DNA of 44,719 nucleotides from IMG/VR virus record IMGVR_UViG_2737471862_000003, positions 1-44,719 of that record, one strand, 5' to 3'. This document shows, one piece after another, positions 29,284 through 35,042 of this stretch (positions are counted from its first letter, which is position 1; each line of letters opens with the position of its first letter). The notes beneath the pieces were generated by a model. The model made no database searches. It saw only the letters and a program-made list of their open reading frames with translations, and had not been told where the DNA came from. Source of the DNA: a virus. Taxonomy: Duplodnaviria; Heunggongvirae; Uroviricota; Caudoviricetes. A program made the position numbers and the translations under genes.

Positions 29284-30342
29284 TTATGCTTTCCACTTCA
29301 GGACACCCGAATTTCTCGCGTGCATTAAAAAACGAATCAGCAACAACAGCTGGCTGCCGTGTTTTTCTTCAAAATCTTTTACCCCGGCGTGCAGTTCGTT
29401 ATGACATTTACGGCACAGCGGAATAACAAACAAATCGTCAGCCTTTGTTCCCATCCCTCCCAGTCCATGACCAATAATGTGATGCGGATCATCTGCCTGA
29501 TTGCCACACGTCATGCATTTCTGCGTTTTTACCCAGCGCGTGTATACGGGCATCTCTTCCCGCTGTGGTTTCTGACGCTGGAGATACTGAGCCGGAGACT
29601 CCGGATCAACGGCAATGCTGACCACCGTCTTTTCCTGTGGTGGGTTTTGTTGCTGGTGGGCGTGAGGCAACGGCGAAAAATTTTTTGTGCGCTGCTTCAG
29701 TATGCTGGTGGCTGTCTGCTCTCCCGGTATGATGTCGCTTTCGCGGTACACCGAGCGGATTTTTTCCGCACGCAACCCCAGAGAACGACGTAATACTGCC
29801 TCCGGTAGCGCGTCCGCCACCTGATTGCAGACCGCCCACCAGGATAATTCAGCCAGCGATAATTCCCGTTCCTGTGTACCGTTCATTGCATGACGTATGA
29901 CGTCAATCATCCAGGCTGTCAGATTTTGTTGAGCAAGCTGCCCGAGTGATTCGGATGTCTGGTCACGCAGCTGGTTGTCGCAGTGCCAGCACAACACCAT
30001 TGCGCCGGTACCGTAACGATGTATGACGATTTCACTGTGATGATAGTCACCATGAGGCCACTGGCAGGATTTGACATGACGCAACAGCCAGTCAGACAGT
30101 GCCCCAGCGCCGCCAGCAGCACGAATCACCCGCTCATCGCTGAAAAATGGCAGTAATGATTTATCCTCCGCCAGCGGCTGGCGAACGGCAGGGACGACTC
30201 CGGATGGCAGGCCGCACATGCTTTTCGGTTCCGGCTCCACCAGCACTCGAGGATTGTGAAATACCTGCATGGATTCACGACCTGGCTTAAGGACCACCAG
30301 CCCGAGTTCCGGTACCAGAACAGGTCGAAGTAATACCCGCAC
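29284..30342 (-). CDS. DUF968-like protein with C-terminal Cys/His HNH-like zinc-finger motif
   Basis: 352 aa. C-terminus reads CMTCGN...DPHHI...CRKCHNELH. The apparent start is GTG with a GGAGG ribosome-binding site. Family assignment is from memory (YdfU-like). Confidence 0.5.
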   Translation of the reverse strand: MRVLLRPVLVPELGLVVLKPGRESMQVFHNPRVLVEPEPKSMCGLPSGVVPAVRQPLAEDKSLLPFFSDERVIRAAGGAGALSDWLLRHVKSCQWPHGDYHHSEIVIHRYGTGAMVLCWHCDNQLRDQTSESLGQLAQQNLTAWMIDVIRHAMNGTQERELSLAELSWWAVCNQVADALPEAVLRRSLGLRAEKIRSVYRESDIIPGEQTATSILKQRTKNFSPLPHAHQQQNPPQEKTVVSIAVDPESPAQYLQRQKPQREEMPVYTRWVKTQKCMTCGNQADDPHHIIGHGLGGMGTKADDLFVIPLCRKCHNELHAGVKDFEEKHGSQLLLLIRFLMHARNSGVLKWKA

Positions 30343-31102: not shown

Positions 31103-31258
31103 TTACTCCTCAGATTCGTAAGCTGTGAAGACAGCGACCTCCGTCTGGCCGGTTCGGATTCGTACCTCGCAGAGGTCTTTCCTCGTTACCAGTGCCGTCA
31201 CTATGACGGTTAAACAGATGACGATCAGGGCGATTAACATCGCCTTTTGCTGCTTCAT
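31103..31258 (-). CDS. hok: Hok/Gef-family type I toxin
   Basis: MKQQKAMLIALIVICLTVIVTALVTRKDLCEVRIRTGQTEVAVFTAYESEE is essentially the HokD/RelF sequence. AAGGAG ribosome-binding site. Confidence 0.9.
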   Translation of the reverse strand: MKQQKAMLIALIVICLTVIVTALVTRKDLCEVRIRTGQTEVAVFTAYESEE

Positions 31259-31315
31259 AGCCTGCTTCTCCTTGCCTTTCGGCACGTAAGAGGCTAACCT
31301 AGATTTGCCGTTCAT
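31103..31315 (-). CDS. mok: Mok (modulator of killing) overlapping reading frame
   Basis: An in-frame N-terminal extension of 19 codons begins at an upstream ATG, as in hok/mok/sok loci. Confidence 0.6.
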   Translation of the reverse strand: MNGKSRLASYVPKGKEKQAMKQQKAMLIALIVICLTVIVTALVTRKDLCEVRIRTGQTEVAVFTAYESEE

Positions 31316-31360
31316 AGATTGAGCCTCAGATTAATGTTAAGCGTCTTGCCGGACGCGTAA
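31285..31360 (+). ncRNA. sok: predicted Sok-like antisense RNA (position inferred, not located)
   Basis: In hok/sok systems the antitoxin RNA is encoded antisense to the mok translation-initiation region. Here the position is inferred from that architecture only; no promoter or terminator was located. Confidence 0.25.
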
Positions 31361-31595
31361 TGTTAACTGGGGCTTTTCTCTGTCTGCCTTACAGTGGCAT
31401 GCCCGAGGCAGACAGCCTCAAGCACCCGCAACAATCTTACCGACACCGATAAGAAAACGCTATTTTTATTGCCAGAACCTTCTGCCCAGGCTAATGTATC
31501 CGCGTCAGAACGGCGCAATGCGCTCGCCTGAGATACGTTTACTTGTCATTGGTGGCAACAGATAACGGCAATTGTTGTTTCTGTTTGTTTCCTTC

Positions 31596-31632
31596 AAAAA
31601 CCCCGGACCGTCAATCCGGGGTTTTTGTTTGT
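31596..31632. terminator. bidirectional intrinsic terminator
   Basis: AAAAA-CCCCGGA-N7-TCCGGGG-TTTTTGTTTG. Coordinates approximate. Confidence 0.5.
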
Positions 31633-31711
31633 TATCCCCAGCGGCAAATCGAATACACCACCAGCGCCACCGCCATCGCAATTCCTGTCGTTGTGAATGC
31701 TTCAGGCCTGG

Positions 31712-32056
31712 TCATCGTAAAACATCCTCCACGCTTGTCAGTCCGTTTCGCTCCAGGTAGTCCATCGCCTTATCCGGCAGTTTGCAGTCCGGCTTCGCTT
31801 TCCTCAGTTGCCAGGCTAACTGCTTTACCTGCATAGTTAACTCGTCGACCAGACGCTGATACCCCACTGGTTTGTATTCATGCAATTTACCGGCTGGCTC
31901 TGCTGCCAGCGATACCAGTGCGATTTCCAGAACAGCAATATCCATCTTATATGTGCGGATGATGTCATTGTCGATTGTGCCCGGTATGCACAATCTCTGT
32001 GCTTCAATAGTCTCCTCTGCGTGAGCTATTAACTGCTCTCTGGTAAAAGTCGTCAT
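31712..32056 (-). CDS. hypothetical 114 aa protein, paralogous N-terminus with the 135 aa protein at 32640-33047
   Basis: The N-terminus ([14 protein letters not shown]...[16 protein letters not shown]) parallels the N-terminus of the other protein (TKEQLIEEAKLKIA...FKIALASLESEP). Confidence 0.5.
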
Positions 32057-32418
32057 GCCGTAGCCCCTTCTTGATATTTTTCAAACCAGAACACAACTGG
32101 GTCAGATTTCATTTCAACCAATCCCATACGAACCAGCGCTTTGCCTTTCCCGGACGCAAGGAATTCACGACGACCATCACTGATAATTCGCCGATAATCT
32201 TCCAGACTACTGCAATGCTTGTGCAGATTGCATGGGTGGCATGCCGGAACCATGTTGGATATATCGTCACGTTCCTGGTGAAGCATATTTCCATCAAAAC
32301 GGATGACCGGTTTTACATGGTCTGCATGCCACTTTTCGCCAAGTTCGCAGCCGCAATAAGCGCAGCGACCACCGAACTTCATGCGCAGTTCTGCACGTTG
32401 TTTTTTCGTCAGTGCCAT
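32053..32418 (-). CDS. HNH endonuclease
   Basis: From the internal ATG: [26 protein letters not shown]...WHADHVKPV...[11 protein letters not shown], a classic HNH motif with two Cys pairs. AT-rich gene with an AAGGA ribosome-binding site. Confidence 0.85.
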
Positions 32419-32419
32419 A

Positions 32420-32659
32420 TCAGCTTTCCTTATACGGATTAATTTTATTGTGCAGTGTGTTGAACGACGCCCACACCACGTCGTTATACAATTCAATAAC
32501 TGGCTCAATTATTTTCCCGATTGCCCAGACAAAAATTAGCGGGGATATCGGTATCATCAATACGATAAACAGAATGAGAAACAAAAATTCTGTCGCTCTA
32601 CTTTTTCGCGGATATTCTTTTCTGAATAATGTAGGCACATCACTCTCCTTTGTTGCCAA
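32420..32659 (-). CDS. possible small membrane protein (79 aa)
   Basis: Hydrophobic core FLFLILFIVLMIPISPLIFVWAIG. The apparent start is non-ATG, so this is uncertain. Confidence 0.3.
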   Translation of the reverse strand: MATKESDVPTLFRKEYPRKSRATEFLFLILFIVLMIPISPLIFVWAIGKIIEPVIELYNDVVWASFNTLHNKINPYKES

Positions 32660-33047
32660 TGTTTACAGCCTGGCAGGCCTCCTTGAGTACCCAGTCAACA
32701 GCGTCTTTCCATGCTCCGGTTTCAGCTGGCGGATTCTCACACTTTACCTGTTCATAAAAGCGTACCGCTTTAACAAGCCCTTCAGGCACTACCGGCGATG
32801 GCGGGGCGGTGTAAAGGTCGTGGCTTCCATCAGGCAGTGAGTGACCTACATACTCACCGAATCCATCAACACACATGCCCCCATCTTCAATAATGCATGA
32901 CTCCACCGGCTCTGATTCCAGCGATGCCAGTGCAATTTTGAATAACTCACCCTCTATCCGTGCCATCCCTGAATGGGGGTGACATTTCGTAATCGCTATT
33001 TTTAATTTGGCCTCTTCGATTAATTGTTCTTTGGTTAATTCAGCCAT
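32640..33047 (-). CDS. hypothetical 135 aa protein (paralogue of the 31712-32056 product at the N-terminus)
   Basis: ATG start. A small hairpin lies just upstream. Confidence 0.5.
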   Translation of the reverse strand: MAELTKEQLIEEAKLKIAITKCHPHSGMARIEGELFKIALASLESEPVESCIIEDGGMCVDGFGEYVGHSLPDGSHDLYTAPPSPVVPEGLVKAVRFYEQVKCENPPAETGAWKDAVDWVLKEACQAVNIGNKGE

Positions 33048-33142
33048 TTTTCATTACCGCCCTTTCGGGCGGCCTCCTGATGTTCTGAGGGTGCAGAAAT
33101 CCCTCCGGTTAAGGATTAAATTTTTAACAGTGCTAAATTTAA

Positions 33143-33532
33143 TTATTCAGTTCTGGATTTTGTCGCTCTGCGTATCCGCGCTTTTGCGTTACGCTCAATC
33201 TGAATTAGCTTTTCTATATTTTTCCGCCTTTCCCGTTCCTCCTGACGCAATAGCCTTACATCATCTGCCAGTCTGGTTTCTCTTTTCGCCACAGAGAGCA
33301 TCCAGTCAAACGGCTCCACAACTGCACCGCAGATTTTACAGCGGACCTGACGCTCTTTTTCATCAACCCTGACAGAAGCGTGATGGCAATATGGTCTTTC
33401 CGATGGCTCATAAAGAAAATTAACCTGATTACGTGGGTCATCTTCTTTTACCGGAAATAAAACAATATTACTTAACTCATCTTCTGGTTTTATTTCCACG
33501 TCACTCTCCTTTGATGCGAATGCCAGCAACAC
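33143..33532 (-). CDS. hypothetical 129 aa protein with possible Cys/His zinc-binding motif and basic C-terminus
   Basis: ORF plus a CHH...C..C pattern. No family recognised. Confidence 0.4.
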   Translation of the reverse strand: MLLAFASKESDVEIKPEDELSNIVLFPVKEDDPRNQVNFLYEPSERPYCHHASVRVDEKERQVRCKICGAVVEPFDWMLSVAKRETRLADDVRLLRQEERERRKNIEKLIQIERNAKARIRRATKSRTE

Positions 33533-33812
33533 GTAGTGCGCGCTCTAAATCAGCCAGATAAATCCAGCTGCCATTTTCCTTAGGTATCATGACATGGCGC
33601 TCATCAGCATTTATCGGGTGTCCATATCGAAGTTCATAGCCAGCCGGTAGCTGGACTTCCCTTGCCTCCAGTTCTGCAATGCGCTTGTCTTTGGCTTCCA
33701 GTTCATCAAGAACCTTTTTTATGGCTGGTGAATGTGTCGTATAACTCGCAGCCGGACCGGCAAGCATTATCCTGAGCTGCGTTTTCGCTTTTTCCGTGTT
33801 CATTTGGTTCAT
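33501..33812 (-). CDS. hypothetical 103 aa protein
   Basis: ORF in operon context. Confidence 0.4.
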   Translation of the reverse strand: MNQMNTEKAKTQLRIMLAGPAASYTTHSPAIKKVLDELEAKDKRIAELEAREVQLPAGYELRYGHPINADERHVMIPKENGSWIYLADLERALRVAGIRIKGE

Positions 33813-33827
33813 TACCTTATTTAGTGG

Positions 33828-34247
33828 CTATATTCCCCAATAGAACGTTAGTATACGCTGCATAACTTCGCTTTCCCGGCACTCACGGCAAATCATGTTC
33901 TGAGGCCTGTCGTAGCGGCGTATTTCTCCGTCTGGTAATGACCAGATAAGGTCCGGAGCAACCACAACCGGTTTCTTCGCCTTTGCCCTCGATAGTTTTT
34001 TGCGGGCGTTTTGCCAGTCCTTACGAGCCTGTTCAGACGGAAATAACCCGTAGCCAGAATTGTATACATCGCCACTGGCAACCAGCTCTCTGGCGAGAAC
34101 ACTCATCAGATATCTTGTCGCACCTGTTTTCGCTTCCAGTTGCCGTAACGTCTCGCGCCAACTCTGGCGTACGAGATCAACGATCTGCCCTTTAATTTTT
34201 TCCCGCTCTTCCTGTGTAAATACTTTTGCCATAAGCGCCTCCGGCAA
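33828..34247 (-). CDS. hypothetical 139 aa protein
   Basis: ORF in operon context, immediately following the stop of the 264 aa gene. Confidence 0.4.
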   Translation of the reverse strand: MPEALMAKVFTQEEREKIKGQIVDLVRQSWRETLRQLEAKTGATRYLMSVLARELVASGDVYNSGYGLFPSEQARKDWQNARKKLSRAKAKKPVVVAPDLIWSLPDGEIRRYDRPQNMICRECRESEVMQRILTFYWGI

Positions 34248-35042
34248 TCACTTTTCCGATACAACACGGCGGGAAGAATCAGTAATCTGTCGAACAATAT
34301 CCCGGTGCTTGTTCAGCTCCCGCAGCGCGGCGCAGACTCGCTCCCACTTCTGGACATGATTTTTCGCCCGACGCAGTTCACGGTTTGCCATATGCAGCGA
34401 TGGTAAAATCAGGTTATCCGCTTGCGTTTCAGTAAACGATGGCAACGACTGCACAATGTCCCCCACAGTATCTGTTTTAATTTCTTCCTGTGTTGCCGCT
34501 TCCTGTCCTGGTAACGCAACACCGGCTGGCTGAGAAAAGGCTTTACCAGGTGTTTTCGCTACCGATACAACTTTCGGCTCTGCTGGTAAATTTTCCCCGG
34601 TTTCTTTTACCAGCATCCACTTACACCCCTTCCCCTGTCCCAGCTTAATCGCCATGCCATCGCGGCAAAGCTTTTCCATCGCAGAAACCAGCGACCTGAC
34701 GCAATCAGCACGCCCCACAGCAATTGCAATCTCAGCGGTGGTCATTGCCCCACCATGAACAAGTGTGGACAGGATGTCGCAGCGTTTCAGTGGCTCACGC
34801 TCTTTTCTGCTGACCACCGGATGGGATTTTCTTTCCACTTTACACACCGTTACTTTTTTTTCTTTCACGCCCGTTTGTCGTTCTGAAACAGACCAGTAAC
34901 CATTAACCGACACAACTTCTCCCTGCTCTTCGTACTCCCGCAACATTTTAATCGCCTCAGCCGGTGCAATGCCCAAACTGGTAGCAAGCTCAGTGCACGT
35001 CACCTTTTGCATCGCTTTTAACGTATCAATCAACGTTTCCAT
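34248..35042 (-). CDS. hypothetical 264 aa protein with N-terminal winged-helix-like region (replication-module position)
   Basis: N-terminus METLIDTLKAMQKVTCTELATSLGIAPAEAIKMLREYEEQGEV looks like a helix-turn-helix. No ATPase motifs were seen. Confidence 0.45.
   Translation of the reverse strand: METLIDTLKAMQKVTCTELATSLGIAPAEAIKMLREYEEQGEVVSVNGYWSVSERQTGVKEKKVTVCKVERKSHPVVSRKEREPLKRCDILSTLVHGGAMTTAEIAIAVGRADCVRSLVSAMEKLCRDGMAIKLGQGKGCKWMLVKETGENLPAEPKVVSVAKTPGKAFSQPAGVALPGQEAATQEEIKTDTVGDIVQSLPSFTETQADNLILPSLHMANRELRRAKNHVQKWERVCAALRELNKHRDIVRQITDSSRRVVSEK

Follow-up and report, generated by a model that had tools for sequence, protein, structure and literature searches.

Lambdoid phages carry mosaic accessory arrays of the 'ea' and nin type, which exchange at short conserved boundaries, as set out in the modular theory and in comparisons of HK97, HK620 and P22. 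Phages are also known to carry free-standing HNH homing endonucleases, such as the T4 Mob proteins and the I-HmuI-type enzymes. A search for literature on DUF4014, one of the genes of the locus described here, and on HNH genes in Ea22/EaA arrays returned nothing.

The locus occupies positions 31712-33047 of a 44.7-kb stretch of DNA (the window) and is best read as part of the early operon of a lambdoid prophage of E. coli, where it makes up the downstream end of a hypervariable array of accessory genes. Like lambdoid mosaic arrays generally, it consists of tightly packed small early genes with breakpoints at gene boundaries or short conserved stretches, and the same cassettes recur in different prophage regions and orders. 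It differs from these arrays in that the recombining sequences can be specified (an SD-stop-start junction and a 30-45-bp hinge within a protein family) and in that a same-backbone allele pair differs by exactly 1,012 repeat-flanked bp. The locus is a well-resolved example of how cassettes with SD-stop-start junctions and hinge shuffling rebuild the accessory region of a lambdoid prophage.

With the T4 Mob and I-HmuI-type enzymes, the window HNH shares its character as a small intergenic HNH ORF that is sporadic over genomes and phage types, as well as its ORF-precise presence or absence. Unlike them, it has no DNA-binding extension, its HNH-less alleles are scars or collapses, it is under strong purifying selection, and it has long been linked to a single family of neighbouring genes. 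The pattern at the locus is that of the ordinary shuffling of prophage genes at short conserved stretches, and we put at about 0.6 the probability that the region is a mosaic array of accessory genes that includes a nuclease cassette, rebuilt by crossovers at junction and hinge sequences, in which the HNH gene was moved passively. The locus is a warning that a small HNH ORF in a phage need not be a homing endonuclease.

Genes of the array and the HNH nuclease

An earlier note on the window had described an HNH gene and a possible small membrane ORF between two genes with a common N-terminus, and this observation holds. All four ORFs (Table 1) are genuine, lie on the minus strand and are annotated by RefSeq in the chromosome of E. 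coli strain OkiPb01716, which is 99.9% identical. The operon runs from repressor/Cro through replication genes, DUF977, the array and a terminator to hok/sok, DUF968, RusA and Q. The leader of the array (window positions 33049-33080/33150) precedes the 135-aa gene in the window but DUF4014 in the prophages ArgO145, L003 and L168, and the stop codon of the HNH ORF overlaps the start of the 114-aa gene (ATGA). The suspected membrane ORF is DUF4014 (88.2 bits against a gathering cutoff of 23.2 for PF13198, E=4.7e-25), with one strongly hydrophobic stretch at approximately residues 17-44. The HNH gene had also been called AT-rich; at 48.4% GC it resembles its two flanking genes (49%) and the window (51.1%), and the AT-rich piece is instead DUF4014 (38.4%). 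AT-richness of the HNH gene as a sign of foreign origin was rejected on this ground.

Table 1. Features of the accessory-gene array, in window coordinates
Feature	Position	Strand	Basis or remark
135-aa gene: N-terminal module (residues 1 to ~48) and variable C-part	32640..33047	-	phrog_660/5117; N-module resembles P22 EaA
114-aa gene: N-terminal module (residues 1-55) and conserved C-module (ELTMxVKQL..)	31712..32056	-	PHROG, relatives
DUF4014, a small membrane protein of 72 aa starting at GTG	32420..32638	-	PF13198, phrog_1832
121-aa stand-alone HNH (beta-beta-alpha-metal) nuclease, two CxxC pairs	32053..32418	-	Pfam, PHROG, conservation, AF2, Foldseek
3' tail of HNH gene, persisting as scar in HNH-less alleles	32053..32111	-	blastn breakpoints; 55-aa chimera L003_55
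Hinge repeat, copy 1	32908..32938	-	encodes ..KIALASLESEP, N-module end of 135-aa gene
Hinge repeat, copy 2	31896..31926	-	encodes N-module end of 114-aa gene
1,012-bp segment absent from same-backbone L171-L174	31927..32938	-	blastn; three-way alignment
GC-rich hairpin followed by SD, in intergenic leader 5' of first cassette	33056..33074	-	sequence reading; conserved
Terminator-like hairpin closing array	31595..31627	.	scored on + strand; palindromic stem

The HNH protein belongs to the Pfam HNH family PF01844 (28.2 bits against a gathering cutoff of 21.4, E=2.2e-6), with a catalytic His (HADH), structural and metal-binding Asn residues, two CxxC zinc-binding pairs and the beta-beta-alpha fold, and it matches phrog_2118, 'HNH endonuclease', at E=8.8e-57. 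Residues C19, C22, H31, D33, H34, N55, C60 and C63 are invariant across 75 homologues down to ~48% identity, and N64 is conserved in at least 90% of them. The AF2 model (pLDDT 92.8) has strands at residues 31-59 followed by a helix at 61-67. Foldseek matched this model to Cas9 HNH domains, to the Geobacter Gme HNH nicking endonuclease (4H9D) and to McrA; in a sequence search of the PDB, 4H9D was the sole match (E=0.003). The core that these proteins have in common with the window HNH is the beta-beta-alpha-metal core with CxxC...CxxC, and similarity is low (~20-28% identity, TM ~0.4-0.5) and limited to this catalytic core, the C-terminal helices and conserved tail being specific to the window HNH family. 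The median dN/dS of the gene is ~0.045. The HNH family is ancient and widely distributed, with strong purifying selection acting on it; the window gene is itself intact and selectively maintained, and its product is predicted, from sequence and modelled fold, to be a stand-alone nuclease.

Several more specific identities were considered and rejected. A terminase-associated HNH of the HK97 gp74 type was ruled out since the gene lies in the early operon between replication genes and hok/Q; large ORFs at ~17-22.5 kb, ~10 kb from the HNH gene, were taken as packaging genes by size and position alone. Lambda NinG/Rap (PF05766) scored 18.2 bits against a cutoff of 25.4 with only the HNH-motif region matched. 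For the HNH components of anti-phage defence systems (Septu PtuB, retron HNH and IscB), there were weak, motif-level matches only: PtuB at E=3e-8 over 70 residues, TIGR02646 with 21.8 bits against a threshold of 52 and IscB with 23.8 bits against 175. PADLOC defence-system and NCBIfam assignments were likewise below threshold with matches at motif level only, and no partner genes of anti-phage defence systems were found near the HNH gene.

The N-terminal module of the flanking genes and its hinge

The similarity between the N-termini of the two flanking proteins, which the earlier note had proposed to check by alignment, was borne out. Their BLASTP match is weak (E=0.001, 31% identity over 54 aa), but both N-termini match the same PHROG families (phrog_660, 5117, 60 and 3323), and they are the only ORFs of the window to match a profile of the N-module (E=1e-17 and 2e-22), both window proteins being among the seeds of that profile. 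The best direct repeat in the region is formed by the N-module ends themselves, with two imperfect copies of 31 nt that are 87% identical and 1,012 bp apart; shuffled sequence gave 0 matches. The two proteins have in common an N-terminal module of ~50 aa, which is closed by a conserved hinge (..IALASLEAEPVA) and followed by interchangeable C-terminal parts. The 114-aa C-module is joined to at least six different N-modules, and at least five different C-parts occur behind a single N-module type that follows HNH. The flanking genes are not a duplication made or targeted by an insertion, as had been suggested, but two members of a large mosaic family.

Neither flanking protein matched a Pfam or NCBIfam family at E<=0.01, the Ead/Ea22-like model included, and the PHROG families in which they fall have no assigned function. 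P0215, a relative by the C-module alone, does carry PF13935, and a PDB sequence search with the flanking proteins returned coiled-coil-like noise only. The N-module of the two proteins also occurs in DUF551 proteins and in 933W L0065, which is annotated 'similar to EaA protein of bacteriophage P22', and neighbouring relatives are labelled 'ead/Ea22-like' by RefSeq. The N-terminus of lambda Ea22 (MSEINYQALREAAE type) is a different module, seen only in other loci. Ea22 has a prolysogenic role (PMC7093339, PMC10834534); these papers deal with a different module than that of the window proteins, and the role is not transferable to them.

It could also be asked whether the 135-aa and 114-aa genes are the two halves of one ancestral gene of phrog_660 type, interrupted when DUF4014 and HNH were inserted, since positions 3-143 of phrog_660 are matched by the 135-aa protein and positions 145-193 by the C-terminal end of the 114-aa protein, and a 166-aa protein (P0191) combines a 135-type N-module and middle with a 114-type C-module. 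This idea is largely refuted, and we consider it hardly credible. No sampled ORF holds both the 135-aa and the 114-aa C-part; P0191 departs from the 135-aa protein after ..VVPEGLVKA and continues into an unrelated segment, which makes it a different mosaic. The 114-aa gene has a complete N-module of its own and is independent of the 135-aa gene in nearly all of its occurrences, and the PHROG profile merely merges mosaic relatives.

Cassette boundaries and alleles in other prophages

Comparison with other prophages by blastn showed that every array gene behaves as a cassette in its own right, with breakpoints exactly at gene boundaries. Read directly, the junctions carry either the SD of the next gene within the last codons of the preceding one (...AAGGA(A/G)nnTGAnATG) or an ATGA overlap, and the alleles differ by breakpoints at short conserved sequences, namely this junction and the hinge. 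ArgO145, a different prophage context in which the HNH gene is found at 96% identity, shares only window positions 31632-32637 (DUF4014-HNH-114, 96%) and then jumps to the leader at 33049, the 135-aa gene being missing. In L005, the 135-aa gene directly adjoins HNH and DUF4014 is precisely missing. The 135-aa gene is thus itself an independent cassette, which runs against the proposal of an insertion into or beside a duplicated gene. Further orders are DUF4014-87aa-55aa-114aa (L003, L004 and L002), DUF4014 followed directly by an N-module gene (L168 and L167) and DUF4014-HNH-another N-module gene (L170), and HNH is present or absent exactly from ATG to ATG between DUF4014 and an N-module gene. 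L168 and L170 were rejected as a clean minus/plus HNH pair, their flanks being only 85-91% identical and their N-modules different.

The 55-aa ORF of L003 (L003_55) represents an HNH-less scar allele in which 58 bp from the 3' end of HNH survive, joined to a different N-module; homologue alignment showed this tail to be native to the HNH family. A 27-bp likeness of the HNH 5' end to the 87-aa gene of L003 was rejected as an HNH remnant because L158, an 88-aa diverged homologue of the 87-aa protein, natively has the N-terminus MxxLTKKE. The firm HNH scar is the 3' tail only.

The earlier note had looked to an HNH-less relative to define the boundaries, and the same-backbone prophages L171-L174 place them exactly in the repeated N-module hinge. 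The segment that these prophages lack takes in the C-part of the 135-aa gene, DUF4014, HNH and the 114-aa N-module, and is bounded by the imperfect direct repeat, for which the repeat search gave independent confirmation; the site is occupied by a single 107-aa gene with the N-module of the 135-aa gene and the C-part of the 114-aa gene. Their flanks match the window at 97.6% and 92.9% identity, with a 29-bp overlap at the hinge, and in a three-way alignment the crossover falls inside ATCGCTGG. Judged from these alignments, the L171-L174 allele would most simply be a recombinant or deletion rather than a pre-insertion target, and a deletion or a single crossover explain the difference equally well. 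Among 5,426 complete E. coli genomes, the full four-gene arrangement was found in 4 and the collapsed (107-aa) allele in 8; both are rare, and allele frequency was rejected as a guide to insertion versus deletion. Parallel collapsed chimeras exist in P0151 and P0161, where N-modules of other upstream array genes are joined to the 114-aa C-part.

Under the passive reading, crossovers between collinear lambdoid genomes at junction or hinge sequences would have produced the gene order of the window, with the 135-aa cassette joining an older DUF4014-HNH-114aa block on its upstream side. Two copies of the hinge would thereby have come to form a direct repeat that leaves the intervening segment, including HNH, prone to loss, and the single-gene allele of L171-L174 may be such a hinge recombinant. 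HNH itself would have been carried along by recombination as a cassette usually translationally coupled to the downstream N-module gene. All neighbouring genes are equally cassette-like, and nuclease-driven mobility is therefore not needed to account for the pattern.

Adjacency of HNH to N-module genes

In the same 5,426 genomes, the HNH core was found in 385 and the 114-aa gene in 563, nearly all of the latter without the 135-aa gene. The HNH 3' tail lies directly upstream of the 114-aa gene in 518 of these 563 genomes, as part of an intact HNH or of a 55-aa scar ORF, so that this gene does not present the clean empty-site alleles, free of HNH remnants, that are looked for with a homing endonuclease. 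A probe spanning the 114-aa start and the HNH tail matched 746 genomes, ~360 of them without the HNH core (746 minus 385).

In Enterobacterales, the gene directly 3' of HNH is usually an N-module gene. Across 160 HNH loci, which are not phylogenetically independent and in which the longest ORF was called, 48 of the 65 N-module ORFs were immediately downstream of HNH, as was the case in 31 of the 44 loci with HNH at least 90% identical; this placement 5' of an N-module gene is far more frequent than random placement gives. It holds for HNH homologues of ~50% identity in Huaxiibacter, Silvania and Edwardsiella. The HNH family is scattered over unrelated phages (lambdoid, RB49-like T4-type, Acinetobacter, Vibrio and Caulobacter), and some homologues carry a homing endonuclease annotation. 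The adjacency tells against purely passive carriage in that it hints at a specific link, homing-like or functional, which that model does not require; the scatter over unrelated phage types, typical of mobile nuclease genes, does so as well.

Such a link could be explained if HNH were a free-standing homing-like endonuclease that cuts HNH-less relatives within or close to the conserved start or hinge of their N-module genes. When the break is repaired from an HNH-bearing genome, HNH would be copied together with the adjoining N-module, and the pair would therefore travel as a unit while C-terminal parts are swapped at the hinge. The sporadic distribution of HNH, its 96% identity in two different prophage regions, its exact ATG-to-ATG presence or absence and the same-backbone allele with boundaries in the repeated hinge are all consistent with this explanation, as are the lasting adjacency even at ~50% identity, the scatter over phage types and the annotations of some homologues. 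We nevertheless regard it as unlikely. The HNH has no identifiable target, and neither a cleavage site nor a co-conversion gradient nor a DNA-recognition domain was found at the locus, the AF2 model and Foldseek indicating a 121-aa single domain without an extra DNA-recognition module. Hinge crossovers also occur in arrays without an intact HNH (P0151 and P0161), neighbouring non-nuclease cassettes are just as mobile, and N-module genes adjoining HNH can carry the consensus hinge, which means that there is no obvious self-protection. Of the homing-like insertion put forward in the earlier note, the sporadic occurrence of HNH (385/5,426) and the existence of a same-backbone HNH-free allele stand, whereas the HNH-free alleles, being scars or collapses rather than clean empty sites, look like products of loss or recombination.

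A more specific and quite doubtful version is that HNH and the following N-module form a self-propagating cassette, the nuclease cutting competing prophages at the conserved hinge or start of their N-module genes. In the form seen in the window, the cassette would have its own N-module at the 3' end and a C-part at the 5' end, and insertion at the hinge would split the target yet regenerate two intact mosaic genes. If true, this would be a non-disruptive homing strategy that also drives domain shuffling in the N-module family. If the linkage does reflect nuclease-stimulated recombination, it would account, by a mechanism that can be tested, for the hotspot mosaicism of E. coli prophages, Stx-type ones among them, and would be a new, non-disruptive form of homing.

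The adjacency could alternatively be functional, with the downstream N-module protein binding, inhibiting or targeting the nuclease in the manner of an immunity protein or adaptor, and with the variable C-terminal parts supplying different specificities. The HNH stop overlaps the start of the N-module gene (ATGA) in most enterobacterial loci, and the partners of near-identical HNH proteins conserve the first few and last ~15 residues of the module. These are the only module residues so conserved: where the HNH proteins are at least 98% identical, their partners share almost nothing in the module body, and a co-evolved interface is therefore disfavoured. N-module genes are also common without HNH, as shown by the 563 genomes with the 114-aa gene, the ~360 tail-probe genomes without the core and further such genes in L167, L168 and 933W, and in L005, as with every distant homologue, HNH lies beside genes without the module. 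The ATGA overlap, for its part, is a common feature of these operons, and we consider a functional pair very improbable.

The array and the N-module of its flanking genes

The window represents a lambdoid prophage of E. coli. Its bases 31500-33200 were found to be 99.9% identical to the chromosome of E. coli OkiPb01716, and the same genes are annotated there by RefSeq, so the coordinates and gene calls of the earlier note are correct. The early operon, on the minus strand, starts with DNA-binding and replication genes, runs through the array and, after a terminator-like hairpin, continues with sok/hokD, DUF968, RusA and Q.

Features of the early operon in the window, in operon order
Feature	Position	Strand	Remark
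DUF1627	34248-35042	-	
DUF977	33828-34247	-	after DUF1627
103-aa ORF	33501-33812	-	between DUF977 and 129-aa ORF
129-aa zinc-ribbon ORF	33143-33532	-	
Leader	33049-33150	-	between 129-aa ORF and 135-aa gene
Conserved leader hairpin	33056-33074	-	GC-rich (GGCCGCCCGAAAGGGCGGT), directly before SD of first cassette
135-aa gene	32640-33047	-	
DUF4014	32420-32638	-	
HNH	32053-32418	-	
114-aa gene	31712-32056	-	
Terminator-like hairpin	31595-31627		after 114-aa gene
hok/sok locus	31103-31427	-	type I toxin-antitoxin, complete
sok RNA	31253-31427		RF01794, 110 bits
70-aa mok-type ORF			reaches 31315
hokD	31103-31258		
DUF968	29284-30342	-	352 aa, HNHc_6 domain; then RusA, Q

The proteins flanking DUF4014 and HNH, of 135 and 114 aa, show a weak pairwise BLASTP match (E=0.001, 31% identity over 54 residues). 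Both match phrog_660, 5117, 60 and 3323 through residues 1 to ~50-100, and a profile of this N-terminal module (N-module; consensus MTTFTKEQLI...ELAEIALASLEAEPVA), built from five seed sequences including both window proteins and iterated on ORFs of related loci, matched only these two ORFs, both among the seeds, in the 44.7-kb window. The common PHROG families and the profile match bear out the earlier claim of a similar N-terminal segment. The DNA of the hinge, where the N-module ends and variable C-terminal parts join, is the strongest direct repeat of the region (31 nt, 87% identical, copies 1,012 bp apart); shuffles gave no matches.

Proteins of the N-module family resemble beads on a string, in which the N-module precedes several short segments; these are set apart by recurring linkers, (P)LY(A/T)APPxPVVP(D/E), and recombine independently between proteins (e.g., loci L007 4363-5028, L113 4363-4728 and L170 1492-2022, among others). 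The CI(I/V)EDGGMC(V/I)DGFGEYVGHSLPDG segment of the 135-aa protein is also present downstream of HNH in other genomes.

Exchange of cassettes between related prophages

Comparison of the region with related loci, by blastn and through the annotations of those loci, showed each gene of the array to behave as a separate cassette.

Gene order of the array in the window and in related prophage loci
Allele	Order
Window	leader, 135aa, DUF4014, HNH, 114aa
ArgO145	leader, DUF4014, HNH, 114aa
L005	135aa, HNH, other gene
L003/L004/L002	DUF4014, 87aa, 55aa, 114aa
L168/L167	DUF4014, N-module gene
L170	DUF4014, HNH, DUF551-type N-module gene
L171-L174	single 107-aa chimera

The Stx-type phage ArgO145 has in common with the window only 31632-32637 (DUF4014, HNH and 114-aa gene; 96%), and homology resumes only at the leader (33049), so that the window has the 135-aa gene as an exact addition. 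In ArgO145 this block lies in a different part of the phage, near a toxin-antitoxin pair and an anti-repressor. L005 is without DUF4014 and carries a different gene downstream of HNH, and L168 and L167 match the window in prophage context. The full four-gene arrangement occurs rarely, in 4 of 5,426 complete genomes (HNH core in 385, 114-aa gene in 563).

As read from the sequence, array genes have a common junction design, in which the SD of the next gene lies in the last codons and is followed by TGA, one base and ATG (...AAGGAAAnCTGAnATG, ...AAAGGAGAnTGAnnTG), the alternative being a stop/start overlap, ATGA. The HNH gene fills an exact ATG-to-ATG slot. The fusion or read-through variants P0002 (Shigella sonnei, 194 aa), P0121 (167 aa) and P0141 (121 aa) join DUF4014 to HNH, the 55-aa scar to the 114-aa protein, or the N-terminal part of DUF4014 to the 114-aa protein; they result incidentally from the tight packing of the SD-stop-start junctions, or from additional short-homology deletions.

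The leader hairpin is kept across alleles whichever gene comes next (the 135-aa gene in the window; DUF4014 in ArgO145, L003 and L168); it may serve RNA stability, act as a processing site or mark a recombination boundary. The hok/sok locus, just downstream of the array terminator, is the conserved right flank in every allele compared. The 103-aa ORF, with the C-terminus ..RVAGIRIKGE, has a match in the C-terminal part of 'ead/Ea22-like' proteins (phrog_250; a 153-aa protein of L004), and RefSeq lists a portion of this ORF in a near-identical genome as a pseudogene fragment without N-terminus; it is another mosaic remnant of the same array.

Alleles without HNH

The comparison with HNH-lacking prophages proposed in the earlier note yielded an HNH-free allele on the same backbone, with its bounds in the paralogous N-termini. 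In L171-L174 the order is repressor, Cro, YdaT, replication, DUF977, 100-aa and 129-aa genes, 107-aa gene, hok, DUF968, RusA and Q. The 107-aa protein encoded there (P0164), like P0162 and P0168 a homologue of the 114-aa protein, consists of the N-module of the 135-aa protein and the C-terminal part of the 114-aa protein, joined at the hinge. Window positions 34235-32910 align to L174 2813-4138 (97.6%) and 31926-31632 to L174 4110-4404 (92.9%); the alignments overlap in L174 by 29 bp, which represent the hinge, and a three-way alignment placed the crossover within the common ATCGCTGG. The window therefore carries 1,012 bp extra, comprising the 135-aa C-terminal part, DUF4014, HNH and the 114-aa N-module, with a direct repeat at both bounds. 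The collapsed allele, present in 8 of 5,426 genomes, could have arisen in one step, by deletion between the direct repeats or by a single hinge crossover of two collinear phages. Insertion as the origin of the difference would require that the window arrangement already existed in a donor; the direction cannot be proven. The 114-aa C-terminal part is also joined to the N-module of the 55-aa gene (P0151) and to that of another upstream array gene (P0161), indicating that hinge-to-hinge recombination of tandem or allelic N-module genes is recurrent, also in arrays without intact HNH.

In L002-L004, blastn homology to the window covers the 114-aa gene and 58 bp of the HNH 3' end, up to 32111. The 55-aa ORF of these loci is a chimera of an N-module (...IALASLEAEP) and an HNH tail of 14 residues; since homologue alignment shows this tail to be conserved and native to the HNH family, these alleles derive, by replacement, from an array that had HNH. 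A probe consisting of the 114-aa start and the HNH tail was covered to at least 80% in 518 genomes, compared to 563 with the 114-aa gene, and ~360 genomes (746 with a match to the probe region minus 385 with the HNH core) have the probe region without the HNH core. The 114-aa gene is therefore almost never present without HNH or an HNH remnant. Similarity between the HNH 5' end and the 87-aa gene was rejected as a scar because the N-terminus of the 87-aa protein recurs in a diverged homologue.

The earlier note had proposed a homing-endonuclease-like insertion of HNH into or beside a duplicated phage gene. The observation behind it is confirmed, and the interpretation is supported in part. There is an HNH-free allele whose bounds lie in the paralogous N-termini. 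The two genes on either side, however, belong independently to a mosaic family and do not represent a duplicated target; every array gene is separately exchangeable, and the alleles lacking HNH represent scars or collapsed forms. Ordinary lambdoid mosaicism, acting at defined short sequences and including a constrained stand-alone HNH nuclease among its cassettes, is the account with the best support (confidence roughly 0.6).

The HNH protein and its linkage to the N-module

A homing-like role of HNH is a live, if rather unlikely, rival, on which linkage bears. Among 160 loci with HNH homologues, which are related by descent and were covered by flanks limited to 4 kb and longest-ORF calls, the gene starting at the HNH stop codon has the N-module in 31/44 loci with HNH identity of at least 90%, 11/33 at 60-90% and 4/68 below 60%; the loci contain 65 N-module ORFs, 48 of them immediately downstream of HNH. 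Judged by eye, several further downstream proteins outside the profile are built alike (start MTT..., hinge ...EPV...). Next to HNH genes at least 98% identical, downstream modules differ almost completely except in the first 5-8 and last ~15 residues, and at least 5 different C-terminal parts occur with one module type. DUF4014 is the upstream neighbour of HNH in 25/44 close loci and in none of the more distant ones. This linkage fits an old HNH-N-module adjacency, kept because crossovers fall in the conserved module ends; it also fits a homing-like or functional link between the two.

The HNH protein scores above the Pfam HNH threshold and, in profile searches, below threshold for NinG, every NCBIfam model and every defence-system family. 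A search found ~700 homologues (115-140 aa), in Enterobacterales, Acinetobacter, Comamonas and other groups. Alignment of 75 homologues (down to ~48% identity) showed two CxxC pairs, H31-A-D33-H34 and N55 to be invariant, and N64, the N-terminal Q7/R8/L11 and P107, F110, F112 and E113 of the C-terminal tail to be at least 90% conserved. A median dN/dS of 0.045 (29 distinct 121-codon copies) indicates that the gene is intact and under constraint. A confident AlphaFold model (pLDDT 92.8) shows one beta-beta-alpha-metal domain with helices after it; among solved structures, Cas9 HNH domains, the Geobacter Gme HNH nickase and McrA come nearest, all with low similarity. The gene had been described as AT-rich, but its GC content (48.4%) is close to that of its neighbours (49%), and the AT-rich piece is DUF4014 (38.4%).

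Full-length homologues with ~42-50% identity are found in very different phages (RB49-like T4-type, Acinetobacter, Vibrio, Caulobacter and Salmonella P22-like). Homologues with ~42-49% identity are present in RB49-like T4-type phages and, near a genome end, in ~48-kb virulent coliphages (e.g., Escherichia phage Phi1, EF437941, 123685-124089; phage HC6, OL362274, 46601-47008), so that lambdoid early operons are not the only setting of the family. DUF968 (phrog_96, 'HNH endonuclease') represents a second HNH-type nuclease gene in the same operon.
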